This document shows positions 9,965 through 15,509 of a stretch of DNA of 64,000 nucleotides, in pieces (position 1 is the stretch's first letter; each line of letters starts with the position of its first letter). The stretch is taken from positions 2,752,001 to 2,816,000 of the forward strand of contig OY776510.1 in the NCBI GenBank assembly GCA_963675665.1, in the 5' to 3' direction. The position numbers were made by a program, and so were the translations under genes. The notes under the pieces were generated by a model. It was not told the DNA's origin. It saw only the letters and a list, made by a program, of their open reading frames with translations, and ran no database searches. The stretch is from Spirochaetia bacterium (GTDB lineage Bacteria; Spirochaetota; Spirochaetia; UBA9216).

Positions 9965-10249
9965 TCAGATTTTTACAGCTTCATTGATTTTTTCAAAATC
10001 TGATTCGATTAAAAGCTTCAGTTCTTCTATCGCCGCATCCTCATCGGCGCCTTCTGCGGAAATTCTGATCGTATCATTCTGAGACACATTCAGAAGTATC
10101 ACCTTGATAATGTTTTTGGCATTAGCTGTTTTTTCATCTTTTGATATCTTTATGTCGGATTCAAAGAGTTTTGCAGTTCTGACAAAAACATCTGCAGGCC
10201 GGGAATGCAGGCCTGTTTCGTTTTTGACCGTTATTTCAAGTTCTTTCAT
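9965..10249 (-). CDS. HPr-family phosphocarrier protein
   Basis: GLHSRPA (His15 motif), ISAEGADE. Confidence 0.93.
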   Translation of the reverse strand: MKELEITVKNETGLHSRPADVFVRTAKLFESDIKISKDEKTANAKNIIKVILLNVSQNDTIRISAEGADEDAAIEELKLLIESDFEKINEAVKI

Positions 10250-10252
10250 TCA

Positions 10253-10423
10253 TTATTTCTCCTGTAAATCGGCAGCACGCTTTTTTTTCCGCCTGTTAAT
10301 AACAATCATGACTATTCCCCAGGCAACCACCGCGATACTGATTATCAGCTGGTGACTGAGTATAAAATTCAGTAATACTGAGCCCCAGTCTCCCAGCAGT
10401 TCCTTTATAATATTTTCAAACAT
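10253..10423 (-). CDS. Small single-pass membrane protein, 56 aa (absent from ORF track)
   Basis: MFENIIKELLGDWGSVLLNFILSHQLIISIAVVAWGIVMIVINRRKKKRAADLQEK fills the gap between the DeoR gene and HPr with 3-nt spacers. Hydrophobic stretch followed by RRKKKR. Confidence 0.7.
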   Translation of the reverse strand: MFENIIKELLGDWGSVLLNFILSHQLIISIAVVAWGIVMIVINRRKKKRAADLQEK

Positions 10424-10426
10424 ATT

Positions 10427-11194
10427 TCATACCGTTATAATTTCAATTCCACTGGAAACAAATGATTTCTTAACGCTTTTACTGATTTTGTCGTCAGTGA
10501 TTATTTTTGTTATTTTGGAAATGTCGTCCAGATAGTTAAAACAGACGTTTCCGAATTTTGTCGAATCAGCAATCAGATAAGTTTCTTTTGCAATTTCCAT
10601 CATCGCTTTAATTACCGGAACGTTTGATGCTTCGTAATATGTCAGTCCGTATTCGGCATCAATTCCGTCTGCCGTCATAAACAGCTTGTCGGCATATTGA
10701 ATACCTGACAGAGGATCCCGGTTGAAATTACGTATTGTTGAATACTGCTTTTCAATCTCTCCGCCCAGCATGAAAAGGCTGATATTATCAAGTTCGGAAA
10801 GTTCAAGAGCCAGGGAGAGCGAATTTGTTATAACCCTGAATTCAAAATCAAGTCCGCTGAAGATTCGTCCTGCCAGCATTGTGATTACGCCCGGGCCTAT
10901 CAGGATTGTTTCTTTTTTTTGAACCAAAGTTGAGCAGTATTCTGCAATCCTGATCTTTTCATTTATAGCTTTACTGAGCAGCGCTTCACGGGTAGGTCCG
11001 GGATAATCCTTTTTATAAAAGACCTCGCCGCCCTTGCCCTGTAGTACTTGTCCTGAATCTTCGAGAAGCTTGATGTCTCTCCGGATTGTGGCTGTAGAAA
11101 CCTTGAATTTTGCAGAAAGTTTTTTTAGAGTTGTTTTTTCTTTCAATCGCAGAATTTCAGTGATTCCTGCCAGCCGCTCTCTCTTGTTTTTCAT
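10427..11194 (-). CDS. DeoR/GlpR family transcriptional regulator
   Basis: VSTATIRRDI HTH, VITNSL, LGGE, IADSTKF. Confidence 0.93.
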   Translation of the reverse strand: MKNKRERLAGITEILRLKEKTTLKKLSAKFKVSTATIRRDIKLLEDSGQVLQGKGGEVFYKKDYPGPTREALLSKAINEKIRIAEYCSTLVQKKETILIGPGVITMLAGRIFSGLDFEFRVITNSLSLALELSELDNISLFMLGGEIEKQYSTIRNFNRDPLSGIQYADKLFMTADGIDAEYGLTYYEASNVPVIKAMMEIAKETYLIADSTKFGNVCFNYLDDISKITKIITDDKISKSVKKSFVSSGIEIITV

Positions 11195-11213
11195 GCTGTA
11201 TACCGGAGGCTGC

Positions 11214-11549
11214 TTAAAGCAGGTGAAAAAGCCCTACTGTTTTCTTTTTAGGCAGGTATTTGTTGAAAATCTCAGCAGCTTTTTCTGTTTTTTCAATAAA
11301 AACCTCAATGCCTTTTTCTTTAAGTGCGTGAACCGCCGAATCGCTTATTTTTATTGGCATCATAAAGCCGAGGCCGACTACAACAACTTCGGGTTCAGCT
11401 TTGAAAACATCATCCAGATCTCCCGGTTCTATGCTGTTGCGGCTTTCAATCCACCATTTTGTATTCATATGATCGCTGTAAACAATAGTGTCGGAGCGCG
11501 AGACCTTGCCCCGAAACAAAAGCTTTCCCAGAGATACTGATTCTATCAT
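11214..11549 (-). CDS. Mth938-like (DUF498) domain protein
   Basis: PEVVVVGLG, KGIEVF, TEKAAEIFN and C-terminal GLFHL pattern. Confidence 0.75.
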   Translation of the reverse strand: MIESVSLGKLLFRGKVSRSDTIVYSDHMNTKWWIESRNSIEPGDLDDVFKAEPEVVVVGLGFMMPIKISDSAVHALKEKGIEVFIEKTEKAAEIFNKYLPKKKTVGLFHLL

Positions 11550-11552
11550 TAA

Positions 11553-11834
11553 TTATTCCTTAACATATGAAATTATTTTCTCCATGTCGGCTTCCATTCC
11601 GATTCCTGTAAGAAAGGAAAGAGTTTGAATTACCGGTATGTCTCCGACATCGCCGACAGGAGTTGTTGTAACTATCAGATCCACACCGTCAAGTTTTGAC
11701 GGGACTTCAGCCGCTTTGCACTGAATAAGATTGACTTTAATTCCTTTCTCCTCGAGATGTTCTTCAATTTTCCTCAAAACTACAGTTGACGTCGCCACTG
11801 CTGTTCCGCATGAAACAAGAATTTTTTTTGCCAT
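11553..11834 (-). CDS. PTS galactitol-family IIB component
   Basis: ILVSCGTAVATS phospho-Cys loop, DLIVTT, FLTGIG. Confidence 0.92.
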   Translation of the reverse strand: MAKKILVSCGTAVATSTVVLRKIEEHLEEKGIKVNLIQCKAAEVPSKLDGVDLIVTTTPVGDVGDIPVIQTLSFLTGIGMEADMEKIISYVKE

Positions 11835-11896
11835 TTAACACTCCTATAAAAAGTCAACCACAAGCTAAAAATATAAGCTTATGATCTAGTCGGATA

Positions 11897-13009
11897 TCAA
11901 CCGACCATTACAGCTTCCCATGCTGCTGCCTGCATTTCCCTGTATTCTTTTCTAAAAGCCATTTTCATCGGATCAAACGGCTCTCTGGTTTTTAAAATTG
12001 TATATACCAAAGTGCTCATCTTGCGGGCGGCAGCTATTACACTCTTACCCGAGCCTTTCTGCTTCTTCATCGCTGCATACTTCGTCATTATTCGGTACGT
12101 CCCGGTCTTCTTTTGCATACGAACCATTCCCATCACCATCTGTACGAAGGCTGTCCTCAGTTCTACAGGCCCACGCTTTGTTATATGTCCATGATGTATT
12201 GTCATATTTGAGTTCTGCACCCATGGCACAAGCCCGGCGTTTGCTGCATATTTCTTCGCACTATCATATCTGCCGATATCGTCTGTATAGGCTCTTACTG
12301 TTGCTGCTGTTATTAGACCCACGCCTGGTATTGTCTGCAGAAGCTCAACATCTTCATCGTCCTCCACAAGCTCAGCCAAAACCTTTTCAAGCTGCTTGAC
12401 TTGCGATGCCTGATTATCTATCATATCCAGTAACGGTATTACCGTTTTGGCAGCGCTTCCGTAAAAGTCGTGGTCCTCGAGACCGTTCAGGATTCGCTGC
12501 CTTTCTTTTTTACTCTGCAGCTGTCCGCGTTTGGTCTCTATTCCATAACCAAGTAATAAGCCATGCACCTGGTTCTTTAACGACACAACAGATTTTACCA
12601 GTATCGACCTGGATTTCAGCACCCTTCGAATATCCTCACTCTCTTGGGAACATAATATCGATTCAGGCAGCATGTCTTTCTCAAGAAACTCCGCCAGGGT
12701 GCGTGCATCATGTTTGTCTGTCTTTTTTACAGATTCATTCACTACCTTGAATTTCAAAGTATTCACTACAACCACTTCGACTCCAGCCTTTAACAGTTTA
12801 TTGCGGAAATAACGGGCATTCCCGGTTGTTTCCACCGCTGCTCTCAACTCATATTCCTCTTCACAATATTCATCCAGCATTTTCAGAAATGCTCCATAAC
12901 CATTTCCGCTGGTCGGATACATTCCCAATTGATCAATTTTTCGGTCTTCACTTAAAAGGCATACTGTAAACTGCGTTTTGTGAAGATCCACGCCAATACT
13001 CATCTTCAT
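11897..13009 (-). CDS. IS110 family transposase/recombinase
   Basis: RuvC-like DEDD residues (GVDLHK, AVETTG, KTDKHDA). C-terminal Tnp domain TIPGVG...GLVPWVQNSN...ITKRG with the conserved Ser. GGAG RBS. Confidence 0.96.
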   Translation of the reverse strand: MKMSIGVDLHKTQFTVCLLSEDRKIDQLGMYPTSGNGYGAFLKMLDEYCEEEYELRAAVETTGNARYFRNKLLKAGVEVVVVNTLKFKVVNESVKKTDKHDARTLAEFLEKDMLPESILCSQESEDIRRVLKSRSILVKSVVSLKNQVHGLLLGYGIETKRGQLQSKKERQRILNGLEDHDFYGSAAKTVIPLLDMIDNQASQVKQLEKVLAELVEDDEDVELLQTIPGVGLITAATVRAYTDDIGRYDSAKKYAANAGLVPWVQNSNMTIHHGHITKRGPVELRTAFVQMVMGMVRMQKKTGTYRIMTKYAAMKKQKGSGKSVIAAARKMSTLVYTILKTREPFDPMKMAFRKEYREMQAAAWEAVMVG

Positions 13010-13039
13010 GTTCTATCTCCAATAGTTTGAAGCAGTGCC

Positions 13040-13205
13040 TATACGGTGAATTGTTCCATTCTCCTATCCGGTCTCGCAGACCATTGAATGTTTCGGTTAC
13101 GGCTCTTCAATCTCCTAAACGGTCTCGCGGACCAGTAAAAATGTCGAACAGTAACCTTACTGCCTCAATTAAAGTTAAGGCAGTATATCAATTCACCAGC
13201 TCATG
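13040..13205 (-). ncRNA. Putative IS110 bridge/seek RNA in the upstream non-coding end
   Basis: Nested helices: 13189-13197 with 13045-13053, hairpin 13158-13185, 13151-13156 with 13095-13100. Two 24-nt modules (13060-13083, 13111-13134; 21/24 identical), each a GGUC...GACC hairpin followed by UAGGAG matching the element junction. Ends are approximate. Confidence 0.72.
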
Positions 13206-13296
13206 AAGACTTTTTATCATTCCTCCTATAAAAGTTTACCGCCAAAAAGCTGCAAAGCAGCCCGGATGGCGGGGATTGCATCCTGATGATATATCA

Positions 13297-15033
13297 TCAT
13301 TGTACATCTGCATACTTTTGAAGAAAAGACTTAATTTCTTCTTCTGTCTTAAATTTTAAAATATCATCAGCTGCTTTTTTACAATCCTGATAACTGACGG
13401 ACCTGATAATTGAAACAGCTTCCGGCAGCATTTGTCCACTCATGCTTAATTCATTGATACCAAGTCCGATTAAAGCGGGAATTGCAGCCGGAATACCCCC
13501 GAGCTCGCCGCAGATTCCCGCCCATCTGTTATTTTTATGAGCATTATCGACAGCAGTTTTTAATGAACGAAATACTGCCGGGCTGAAGAGCCTGTAATAT
13601 TCTGAAACATTCTCATTGATACGGTCCGCGCAGAGGGTGTACTGCGTAAGATCGTTTGTTCCAATGCTGATGAAATCACATTCTTCCGTAAGGATGTCGG
13701 AAATCATGACTGCAGCAGGGGTTTCTACCATAACGCCGACTTCGATATCACCGTTAAAAACAGCGTTCTCATTTTCCAGTTCAGAAATGCATTCGGATAT
13801 TACTGCCCTGGCGGCACGAAATTCCGTTACGTCAGCTACCATCGGGAACATGATCTTTATATTGCCGAAGGCCGCCGCCCTTAGTATTGCCCTAAGCTGA
13901 GTCTTGAAAATATTCCTGTATTTAAGAGAAACTCTGAGTCCCCTTAACCCAAGGAACGGATTATCTTCTTCAGGAAGATTAAAACATTTTACTTCTTTAT
14001 CTCCTCCGATATCAAGAGTCCTGATAATCACCATCCCGGGGTTAAGCTGTTCAGCTACTTTTTTATAGAAATAATATTGCTTTTCTTCATCCGGTAAATT
14101 AACTGTATCAAGAAAAAAGAATTCTGTTCTGAGCAGTCCGACGCTCCGGGCACCGCAGCCGACTGCATTCTGAAGATCCTCAAGCGACCCTATATTTGCT
14201 GATAATTCAATCGTTCGTCCGTCGATTGTAACCGGCTCAAGGTTTCTGACTGCATTAAGGTGTTCTGTTCTCAGGCGGTATTTTTCTTTTTCAGTCATGA
14301 ATTCTGATCTTTCATCATCATTCGGTGAAATCCAGATTTTGGCCGTTTCAAAATCACGGGTGTCGAGAAGAACCTCTGATTTCGGTTCCGTTTTACTCAG
14401 GGCTCCTGCAGCACCGACCACCGCCGGGATGCCGAGCGTTTTAGCCAGAATGGCGACATGCGAGGTCACTCCGCCCTGTTCGGTGATTAATCCTTTTACG
14501 TTATTTTTATTCATCAGGGCCGTATCGGAAGGCATGAGATCCGCTGCAATTACAATAGAATTTTCAGGTATGTTCGAAAGATCCCGGCTTTCCATCCCCA
14601 GCAGGTTTCTGAGAATTCTATTGTATACATCGGTAAGATCAAGAAGCCTTTGCCGGTTGTAATCGTCCTCACCGAGCGCGGTAAAAAGATCGGCGTAGCC
14701 GGTGAAAACTGTCTTTAAAGCTTCTTCGGCACAGACTTGTTTGTCTTTGATTATCTCCCTGATTTCAGTTGAGAACTCCTCATCTTCAATCATCGTCATC
14801 TGAGCCCTGAAGATGTGCCCGAATTCCTTACCGAGAGCACCGGAAAGATTGCTTTTTAAATTTTCAAGTTCCGATCTCGCTGCTTTAAATGCAGCTTCAA
14901 TCCTGTTGTATTCAGCTTCACTGTTTTCAGTTTTTTTACTGCTGAATGAAAGATCCTGTTCCTGGTAGATGAAGGCATAACCGTAACTGATGCCGGGAGA
15001 AGCGCTTCGACCTGTTAGCTGTCCCATACTCAT
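13297..15033 (-). CDS. ptsI: PTS enzyme I (phosphoenolpyruvate-protein phosphotransferase)
   Basis: GGVTSHVAILA (phospho-His), GLLRTEF, RTLDIGGDK, NPFLGLRG, SIGTNDL, GICGE. Confidence 0.96.
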   Translation of the reverse strand: MSMGQLTGRSASPGISYGYAFIYQEQDLSFSSKKTENSEAEYNRIEAAFKAARSELENLKSNLSGALGKEFGHIFRAQMTMIEDEEFSTEIREIIKDKQVCAEEALKTVFTGYADLFTALGEDDYNRQRLLDLTDVYNRILRNLLGMESRDLSNIPENSIVIAADLMPSDTALMNKNNVKGLITEQGGVTSHVAILAKTLGIPAVVGAAGALSKTEPKSEVLLDTRDFETAKIWISPNDDERSEFMTEKEKYRLRTEHLNAVRNLEPVTIDGRTIELSANIGSLEDLQNAVGCGARSVGLLRTEFFFLDTVNLPDEEKQYYFYKKVAEQLNPGMVIIRTLDIGGDKEVKCFNLPEEDNPFLGLRGLRVSLKYRNIFKTQLRAILRAAAFGNIKIMFPMVADVTEFRAARAVISECISELENENAVFNGDIEVGVMVETPAAVMISDILTEECDFISIGTNDLTQYTLCADRINENVSEYYRLFSPAVFRSLKTAVDNAHKNNRWAGICGELGGIPAAIPALIGLGINELSMSGQMLPEAVSIIRSVSYQDCKKAADDILKFKTEEEIKSFLQKYADVQ

Positions 15034-15509
15034 ACCCTGAGATTTTTCCCGACATTATCACGGAGGATATTATAAACTTCATTTTCATCTTCCGCGTAAA
15101 GGAGAGCTTTCAGAACTTCATTATCCTGATATGTTGTAATCAGGGTTTCCAGAAGATCTCCTATTTTCTTCTTTTCTTTCAGGGCAAACATGGAAATAAG
15201 TTGAACAGGGATTTTTTCTTCGGGAGCTCCCATAACCGAGAATTCAACAGAGTCGGACAGTCGGGCAAAACAGATAACCGATTGGTTTACATGATCTGCA
15301 TCGGTGTGGGGTATGGCGATTTTCAGATCTTCCATCGGGAGCCCGGAAGGGTAACTTGATTCTCTGTCCTGAATTGCCTGGATATAGGATTTTTTAACAT
15401 AACCAAGGTCGTAAAGTCTTTCCGCCATAACTTGCAGGGCGGTTTCTTTTGAAGCAGCATCAATGTTGATAAGGATGCATTCAGTCTTAAGTATGTCTTC
15501 AATTTTCAT
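15030..15509 (-). CDS. PTS IIA component (GatA/Fru-Mtl-like)
   Basis: DRESSYPSGL and IAIPHTD phospho-His motif. Confidence 0.92.
   Translation of the reverse strand: MKIEDILKTECILINIDAASKETALQVMAERLYDLGYVKKSYIQAIQDRESSYPSGLPMEDLKIAIPHTDADHVNQSVICFARLSDSVEFSVMGAPEEKIPVQLISMFALKEKKKIGDLLETLITTYQDNEVLKALLYAEDENEVYNILRDNVGKNLRV

Follow-up and report, generated by a model that had tools for sequence, protein, structure and literature searches.

An IS110-family element in a Spirochaetia genome with a predicted guide RNA that carries a Shine-Dalgarno sequence

The element and its predicted guide RNA

The subject of this analysis is an insertion sequence (IS) on the minus strand of a 64,000-nucleotide stretch of the genome of a Spirochaetia bacterium (assembly GCA_963675665.1, contig OY776510.1, positions 2,752,001 to 2,816,000; hereafter the window, whose own coordinates are used below). 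The whole element occupies 11841..13222, which amounts to 1382 nucleotides (nt) when the right-hand TTTTATAGGAG is counted as element DNA and equals the span missing from the empty allele described below. It interrupts an operon between the upstream gene ptsI, for enzyme I of the phosphotransferase system (PTS; 13297..15033, minus strand, with PF02896, PF05524 and PF00391), and the downstream gene for a PTS IIB protein (11553..11834, minus strand, PF02302). Along the minus strand a 63-nt spacer separates ptsI from TTTTATAGGAG at 13233-13223; this host left target (13223..13233) is the original Shine-Dalgarno (SD) region of the gene, and its last bases GAG, probably AG, would be the crossover core. 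There follow a non-coding left end of 213 nt (13010..13222), which opens with GAATGATAAAAAG and contains the right-donor sequence GAATG, a -10-like TGATAAAAA and the predicted bridge-RNA gene, then the recombinase gene (370 amino acids; 11897..13009), and finally a right end of 56 nt 3' of that open reading frame (ORF), at 11841..11896, which is invariant in all 15 genomic copies. The right end contains a -35-like TTGACT (11857-11852) and finishes in ...GTGGTTGACTTTTTATAGGAG at 11841, closing with the element's own SD, TTTTATAGGAG (11851-11841). The host right target (11832..11840) consists of the spacer TGTTAA (11840-11835) and the ATG (11834-11832) of the IIB gene. A subterminal inverted repeat of 10 bp is formed by GACTTTTTAT in the right end and ATAAAAAGTC in the left end. 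The coordinates and motifs of the initial annotation, with TTTTATAGGAG at both junctions and two leader modules (ACAUUUUUAC-hairpin-UUUAGGAGAU and ACAUUCAAU-hairpin-GAUAGGAGAAUGG), were correct.

The recombinase combines an N-terminal RuvC-like DEDD domain (PF01548, E 9e-18) with a C-terminal Tnp domain (PF02371, E 1e-17), scores 216.8 bits against a cut-off of 140 with the NCBIfam model NF033542 ('IS110 family RNA-guided transposase'), and matches the solved ISCro4 and IS621 recombinases in the PDB (E 7e-16 and 6e-15). D8, E60, D98, D101 and S267 are unchanged across 10 relatives; D8, D98 and D101 align with residues 13, 104 and 107 of the IS621 chain, corresponding, with an offset of 2 residues, to native D11, D102 and D105, and S267, in VPWVQNSN, aligns with the serine of IS621 ...RRYESGSS..., chain residue 243 and native S241. 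A reading in which threonine replaces the catalytic serine (ITKRG versus MSKAG) was rejected, the catalytic serine being that of YESG, aligned with the invariant S267. The enzyme is thus of the DEDD/Ser type and not a DDE enzyme. The ends are likewise of the IS110 type: they lack terminal inverted repeats and a fixed target duplication, and share a short core with the target. By these sequence features the element is a member of the IS110 family with a DEDD/Ser recombinase, and its predicted RNA is not of the IS621 type in layout. An active, bridge-RNA-guided IS110-family element would be the best overall explanation of the locus, and we assign this reading a probability of about 0.88.

A blastn search of the whole genome recovered 15 copies with at least 99.6% identity. 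At the end of every one of them stands TTTTATAGGAG, 5-7 variable nt lead from there to an ATG that opens an ORF of 93-729 amino acids, insertion is always co-directional with the host gene, and at least 5 of the 15 sites stand 3-20 nt behind an upstream ORF on the same strand. It had been claimed from the window that the element enters an SD without destroying it, and this is borne out: AGGAG is kept 6 nt before the IIB ATG, all 15 copies are flanked by SD-ATG sites, and none lies at a non-SD site.

The empty state of the locus is represented in related organisms. Run X5 includes a 17,114-nt contig labelled as another organism, with 16 differences from the window across about 920 bases of flank. 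It runs from 11840 straight into 13223, leaving out 1382 nt, and 11 letters belong to both sides; the empty site with a single TTTTATAGGAG that had been reconstructed from the junctions is therefore present in a relative. In the same genus ptsI is followed directly by one SD and the IIB gene in all four informative genomes (G001, G003, G004 and G005; G002 was left out of the count, its ptsI query having given just 32-38 nt matches), and the same adjacency is found in run X5. In run X1 the read depth is 227-232 inside the element and 15.5-17.2 in the flanks, a ratio in line with about 15 copies; runs X3 and X4 cover the locus in pieces, their covered bins alone being interpreted. Runs X1 and X3 also contain a joint from 11860 to 13190 (a 24,328-nt contig of depth 7.9, with 6 other letters between the parts and 4 mismatches), which connects ~33 nt from the start of the left end with ~20 nt from the close of the right end and corresponds to an internally deleted relative of ~60 nt that is not in the assembled genome.

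The leader in the left end folds with a z-score of -4.45. An alignment of 16 distinct leaders yields 42 predicted pairs, 14 of them with compensatory changes (as a prediction only). Such changes occur in the outer stem of module 1 and in both hairpins, and the stems of both loops co-vary; at columns 83/141, in the module 1 outer stem, the pair is CG in 9, UA in 5 and UG in 2 leaders. A comparison of 11700-13400 with Rfam gave no matching family at E values up to 1. Module 1, the predicted target-binding loop (13095..13156, minus strand), is enclosed by the stem GGUUAC/GUAACC and reads ...GGUUAC, UGUUCGA, CAUUUUUACU, a hairpin (GGUCCGCGAGACC), G, UUUAGGAG, AUUGAAGAGCC and GUAACC; its 5' strand CAUUUUUACU (13143-13134) is the candidate right guide and its 3' strand UUUAGGAG (13119-13112) the left guide. 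Module 2, the putative donor-binding loop (13054..13094, minus strand), reads ...A, CAUUC, AAU, a hairpin (GGUCUGCGAGACC), G, GAUAGGAG and AAUGG. Here the 5' strand CAUUC (13090-13086) is complementary to the first bases of the element, GAATG, and the 3' strand AUAGGAG (13067-13061) is identical to its last bases. Both strands of module 2 and both element ends are invariant in the 16/16 aligned relatives and in the main clade (in the form (G/A)AUAGGAG), so the complementarity is read without co-variation; as read from it, the second loop would recognise the joined ends of the element, ...TATAGGAG followed directly by GAATG....

Relatives came in equal parts from metagenomes (80 loci) and from a set of genomes with a single representative of each species (80 loci), the left end being located in 94 and the right end in 127 of the 160. 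The recombinases of the main clade are 52-88% identical and come from records titled Oceanispirochaeta, Marispirochaeta, Treponema, Syntrophales, Desulfobacterales, Dysgonamonadaceae and others; relatives of this clade with the same ends and SD-ATG flanks are also present in Spirochaetota-titled records and metagenomes. In this clade the left end carries GAATGATAAAA and the right end TTGAC(T/A)TTTTATAGGAG, the latter being common to multi-copy relatives from four other organisms. A Lentisphaeria group with a recombinase only 33-35% identical has other end sequences and the same arrangement, namely AGGAG before the junction and AGGAG-N-ATG at the far side. Among AGGAG-type relatives an ATG lies 4-9 nt after the junction in 79 of 84 de-duplicated sites.

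Some of the collected loci are irregular. In L063 (a Treponemataceae metagenome-assembled genome, MAG), L079 and L083 (Lentisphaeria) the left end is replaced or truncated and the first RNA module is gone, with the second module, the recombinase gene and the right end intact; these may be decaying copies or products of partial transfer. Gracilibacteria and Dysgonamonadaceae are groups that make little use of SD sequences. Copies from a MAG titled Candidatus Gracilibacteria (L013) and a Dysgonamonadaceae MAG (L062; Bacteroidota) lie on contigs of 2.7 and 3.0 kb, and mis-binning is as likely here as a real host range.

The relatives allow the left guide to be compared with the DNA that it would read. 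The Oceanispirochaeta element, with guide UACAGGAG, has ACAGGAG flanks in 8 of 10 copies and CAGGAG in 9 of 10; the Syntrophales element, with CAAAGGAG, has AAAGGAG in 8 of 9; and the Marispirochaeta element, with UUAAGGAG, has TAAGGAG in 5 of 6. Over 94 de-duplicated guide/flank pairs with 32 distinct left guides, identity between guide and flank at -5, -6 and -7 from the junction was 0.96, 0.94 and 0.80 versus 0.80, 0.50 and 0.40 after shuffling, and none of 2000 shuffles reached as high; at -8 these pairs gave no signal. As the host flank changes together with the pair of guide letters ahead of AGGAG, we conclude that the SD is read by RNA, and the co-variation shows a left guide of 7 nt, NN-AGGAG, in the sense of the SD, which would pair with the bottom strand. 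The earlier suggestion of a guide programmed for SD sequences is upheld by this co-variation across relatives.

Guides that have moved away from the SD point in the same direction. Of 57 distinct guide RNAs, 11 lack an AGGAG left guide: one belongs to a degenerate copy (L085), and ten to retargeted relatives on metagenome contigs (L139, L143, L145, L149, L152, L153, L157, L158, L171 and L175) with recombinases 53-57% identical. Their left guides include CCACGGAG, GGCGCAGAG, CAGGGGAG and CUAGGGAG, and the left flanks, where available, match the guide. Some of the targets resemble short tandem repeats (in L171, ...GGCGCAGAG before the junction and ACGCAGAGACGCAGAG after it) and not gene starts, and none of these elements has a start codon at the usual distance. 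To judge from guides and flanks, this set is a case of natural retargeting away from SD sites.

Choice of gene starts and the right guide

The left guide describes the SD, and every known site in this genome is also a gene start. With the IS copies masked, the genome contains 765 TAGGAG sites, of which 143 (19%) precede, within 3-11 nt, an ATG opening at least 80 codons. The copies occupy TAGGAG in 13 cases and AAGGAG in 2, always at gene starts. Compared with 961 background AGGAG-ATG starts, the occupied sites have T at -1, immediately before AGGAG, in 13/15 versus 0.15, and are T-rich at -3 to -6. An AGGAG-ATG spacer of exactly 6 nt is found in 12/15 sites, the window copy included, versus 28% of the same background (P = 4e-5); the excess persists against a TAGGAG-only background (33%, P = 2.5e-4) and against one restricted to the 5-7 nt range (44%, P = 5e-3). 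Since insertion leaves the spacing unchanged, this excess should not stem from selection on the host gene.

A candidate reader of the start codon lies in the 5' strand of module 1, where CAU stands at the same place in 46/46 of the AGGAG-type guide RNAs and is absent from 11/11 of those without AGGAG. Its positions are therefore free to change, and CAU is not merely structural, as it is missing in the retargeted elements. When guides and sites are anchored at the ATG, the letter after CAU complements the letter before the ATG in 48% of 79 sites versus 31% on shuffling (p = 0.0002), and complementarity is also in excess at ATG-2 (p = 0.007). Guides of the G class have C before the ATG in 10/31 sites, versus 12/93 at the three positions further upstream (p = 0.018), and guides of the U class have it in 1/36. 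Anchoring at the core instead favours a register in which the target has one base more (z = 3.6, 0/1000 shuffles). Three sites without an ATG include GTG and TTG at 6 nt. Taken together, these signals suggest that the right guide (CAU plus 6 nt) probably, at somewhat better than even odds, reads the start codon and the 2-3 bases before it. The signal is modest. Start-codon targeting, which had been put forward as tentative, thus gains moderate support from the 6-nt spacing, the linkage of CAU to AGGAG and the co-variation on the ATG side, and the last of these weakens when one site is counted per guide.

Several observations weigh against these readings. The bridge RNA, the circle and transposition are predictions from DNA sequence, and contigs cannot show circles. 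The association of CAU with AGGAG rests on about two evolutionary changes rather than on 57 independent cases: in a quick tree (in which rows L024, L034, L048, L061 and L064 carry a wrong ORF, with a branch length of 10, and are to be ignored) the ten retargeted elements form one subclade, with about two changes. The CA of CAU can, according to RNAalifold, pair with an invariant UG inside the RNA. One site per guide reduces the signal at ATG-1 to 0.40 versus 0.28 (median p = 0.075), and the ATG-anchored signal is in part base composition, slid controls giving +0.06 to +0.08 versus +0.17 on the diagonal. The register of the right guide is ambiguous, the retargeted elements fitting offsets 0, +1 or +4, and contiguous pairing of the right guide from the core (AGGAG-TAAAA-ATG, with a 5-nt spacer) is not supported, T being present at +1 in 3/15 and a 5-nt spacer in 2/15 sites. 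On the left side, the flank is T-rich at -8 to -11 from the junction, where the guide shows no pairing, and has A at -7 in 10/15 copies though the guide has U; 5/15 sites are the ends of the mini-elements described below, which explains only part of this mismatch. Finally, the guide order is reversed relative to IS621, so that details of the solved IS621 mechanism may not transfer.

In a simpler account the guide recognises no more than (T/A)AGGAG, insertion takes place wherever this occurs, intragenic copies are lost and the start codon goes unread. The left guide alone accounts for positions -1 to -7, the spacers of the relatives run from 4 to 12 nt (mode 6, in 42/84 sites overall and 30/69 without this genome), much as natural SD-ATG distances do, the composition of the spacers at occupied sites is near background, and CAU could be maintained by its pairing within the RNA. 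Yet 622 of the 765 TAGGAG sites (81%) are not gene starts and most genes are dispensable, and still none of the 15 copies, which are near-identical and hence recent, lies at such a site; loss of copies through host-gene selection would not yield the excess of 6-nt spacers, as the spacing is untouched by insertion, CAU is missing from precisely those guides that no longer carry the SD, and the complementarity beside the ATG is position-specific. On this balance we consider selection by itself unlikely, and reading of the start codon by the right guide the better account.

A fuller proposal, which we offer tentatively and hold to be somewhat less likely than its negation, is a two-part address used throughout a widespread clade: a 3' strand NN-AGGAG, a 5' strand NNN-ATG anchored at the start codon, a variable 4-9 nt from the crossover, a guide order reversed despite an RNA encoded in the left end, and a donor end that has evolved into a working SD. 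If true, it would need looped-out DNA or a second, more flexible pairing step of a kind not seen in IS621. The element would then also be a natural tool that inserts before any gene without silencing it, and the parent of SD-carrying mini-elements that rewrite 5' leaders.

Mini-elements and the origin of the junctions

A hairpin common to several left flanks of element copies led to a family of ~110-nt repeats. These mini-elements open with GAATGATAAAA..., fold into three hairpins and close with ...TTTT(A/T)(T/C)AGGAG. A profile built from 11 copies has 78 hits in the genome, 38 of them full length (75-157 nt). A second GGAG precedes 29 of the 38, and an ATG lies 4-9 nt after 30; another copy follows 8, giving arrays of 2, 3 and 5, and a full element follows 3. 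Conversely, 5 of the 15 full elements stand directly behind a mini-element, and, with mini-element ends among the landing sites, the T-rich consensus of the left flank is partly accounted for. Examples on contig C1 of the genome (G000) are 2400712-2400821 (plus strand), 2973058-2973366 (minus strand, three in tandem), 1652333-1652891 (minus strand, five in tandem) and 3764695-3764802 (plus strand, directly upstream of an IS copy). Free TTTTATAGGAG sites number 33 in the genome, where ~4 are expected from base composition. Excision footprints were considered as a source of this excess and set aside, because mini-element ends, to which 13 of the 33 sites belong by profile, explain it better.

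The repeats are MITE-like (MITE, miniature inverted-repeat transposable element) in that they carry both ends of the IS, lack the recombinase gene, are multi-copy and occupy the same kind of target. They could alternatively be 5'-leader modules of the host, imitated and targeted by the element rather than derived from it; in keeping with this, they are old and diverse (about 70-80% identity), have three hairpins, stand before genes and lack the TTGAC of the right end of the full element. Against such an origin, they start with the right-donor sequence GAATGATAAAA and finish with the element's own TTTT(A/T)(T/C)AGGAG, the second GGAG before 29/38 is the signature LT-core-element-core-RT (LT and RT being the left and right targets), and 8/38 run directly into another copy, in head-to-tail arrays. 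A MITE-like partner of an IS110-family element is moreover on record as MITEPpu9, in the available portion of PMC12288879. A host origin thus appears improbable, and the mini-elements are most likely non-autonomous derivatives moved in trans.

Across copies, the full element's two junctions behave differently. The right-hand 11-mer is invariant in 15/15 copies; the left-hand one equals it in 6/15 and differs in 9/15, and the left junctions include TCTTATAGGAG, TATTATAGGAG, TTTTAAAGGAG, TTTTTAGGAG, ACATTTAGGAG, ATAATAAGGAG and CTAATTAGGAG. In this genome AGGAG is the only constant part of the left junctions, variation running up to the base before it; among relatives the left flank varies into AGGAG itself (TGGAG, CGGAG, AGAG), and the final GAG is invariant in 94/94 guide/flank pairs. 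As the left copy varies and the right is constant, we infer that the left copy is host DNA and the right copy element DNA, with the exchange inside AGGAG; the repeat is thus not a target duplication, and the end of the element is an SD that replaces that of the host. The place where flank variation stops puts the crossover within the last GAG of the SD, probably at AG. The identity of both junctions in one 11-mer, as first described, holds for the window copy and does not denote a duplication, the right sequence being invariant and the left derived from the host. That the 11-nt repeat is an ordinary target-site duplication by staggered cutting, as made by DDE transposases, agrees with the identical 11-mers of the window copy and of the 6/15, but is refuted by the 9/15 copies with unlike left and right 11-mers and an unchanging right one, by the sharing of the right 11-mer with relatives in other phyla and by a protein of the DEDD/Ser rather than the DDE type, and has next to no probability.

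Proposed mechanism, known systems and the host operon

We propose that the bridge RNA encoded in the left end would choose the target: the 3' strand of module 1, NN-AGGAG, would pair with the gene's SD along its bottom strand, module 2 would pair with the joined ends of the element, and the crossover would take place in the final GAG of the SD, where AG corresponds to CT, the core of IS621, on the other strand. The gene keeps an AGGAG at an unchanged distance from its ATG, because the right end of the element is itself TTTTATAGGAG, and the host's own SD stays in front of the element. The mini-elements would most likely be moved by the same enzyme and would supply further landing sites.

Targeting of the SD and start codon is in itself already known, from IS900 and IS901. 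PMC2942039 cites for it Doran 1997 (titled 'IS900 targets translation initiation signals...') and, as a second source, Inglis 2003. IS900 is reported to separate the host ribosome-binding site from the ATG and to express its own hed gene, which lies opposite the transposase strand, from the host's signals; it differs from the present element, whose crossover falls within the SD, whose recombinase gene has the orientation of the host gene and whose end supplies a replacement SD. The likeness lies in insertion at the SD or start codon, in the single orientation and in the IS110 family: insertion at or between SD and ATG in one orientation applies to 15/15 copies in this genome. For IS900 and IS901, from the Mycobacterium avium group, PMC2942039 reports that insertion, in a single orientation, falls between SD and start codon of host genes, and PMC11208160 includes both in its tree of IS110 recombinases (Supplementary Table 1). 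In the supplements of that paper, available as partial text in which a table of AGGAG target motifs could be missed, IS900 and IS901 appear only as tree entries; the available passages of two preprints and of the Evo-PIN preprint make no mention of SD targets, and a guide-RNA account of IS900 or of SD targeting was not found in the literature searched, most subscription papers being outside it.

With IS621 the element shares the protein family and the catalytic residues and, as predicted, a left-end RNA in which one internal loop serves the target and a second would serve the joined ends. In the sections of PMC11208160 and PMC11208158 that were available, each IS621 loop pairs one strand on each side of a short core, the target is the REP-like (repetitive extragenic palindromic) ATCGGGCCTAC with a CT core, and the loops run left guide, stem-loop, right guide, the left guide pairing with the bottom strand. 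Unlike this layout, both loops of the present RNA run right guide, stem-loop, left guide, with the sense (left) guides on the 3' side of each stem-loop; on the element's strand the core reads AG, the long and strongly matched guide is the 3' one, and no Rfam family matched. On the opposite strand the order becomes that of IS621 and AG becomes CT, so that the recombination site looks flipped relative to the genes of the element. A reversed order does exist in nature, as the IS1111-type seekRNA has, by the excerpted text of PMC11187229, its target-strand segments in reverse order compared with the IS110 type. The reversed order of the IS1111 type may correspond to the one seen here; that type has its RNA region downstream of the recombinase gene and long subterminal repeats, whereas here the RNA lies upstream and the repeat has 10 bp. 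In the available part of a 2026 preprint, many bridge-RNA models depart from the IS621 structure. Given the IS1111 order and these models, we treat the guide layout as a variant and not as something unheard of.

The mini-elements resemble the pair ISPpu9/MITEPpu9 of Pseudomonas putida, in which, according to the same portion of PMC12288879, a small non-autonomous element with IS-like ends is thought to use the recombinase in trans. MITEPpu9 carries a small-RNA gene and has 8 copies, located in REP sequences; the family described here differs in its larger number of hits, its arrays, its SD sites and the new SD that each member brings.

The element is therefore a well-supported instance of behaviour already known, and its novelty lies in an RNA logic that can be read, an end that regenerates the SD, loops in reversed layout, naturally retargeted relatives and a large family of mini-elements. 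A guide RNA that carries the SD itself would offer a sequence-level reason for the behaviour of IS900 and IS901 reported in 1997 and 2003. Furthermore, an element that repairs what it interrupts by means of its own SD end would account for the presence of 15 copies, and of dozens of mini-elements, within operons. With 46 SD-type and 11 non-SD-type members, the naturally occurring guides are test material for the reading of the right half and for the flexibility of the spacing, and an enzyme that inserts upstream of start codons and keeps the translation signals could be a convenient tool for tagging or as a promoter trap in laboratory strains.

The insertion is co-directional with its host gene, and transcription from the host should therefore run through the predicted RNA gene and the recombinase gene into the host gene. 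As no terminator-like site was found in 11500-13400, host transcription could cross the element. The joined ends would also form a promoter, TTGACT-17 nt-TGATAAAAA, as in other family members: read end to end, they give TTGACT, 17 nt and TAAAAA with TG before it, and a junction promoter formed by joined ends is described for the IS110 family in the available portions of PMC11208160 and PMC11187229. At the left junction the host SD is followed by GA-ATG and, inside the left end, a 10-codon ORF (MIKSLHELVN; 13186-13222, minus strand); 2 nt between SD and ATG is an unfavourable distance for initiation, and the Syntrophales element has 8 codons in this ORF, so its length is not conserved. SD sites might serve such elements as a safe harbour. 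The interrupted operon (9965-15509, minus strand) comprises genes for a PTS IIA-like protein and ptsI, then the IS, then genes for IIB, a DUF498 protein, a DeoR-family regulator, a small membrane ORF and HPr; the five co-directional genes downstream of the element may depend on read-through for their expression.

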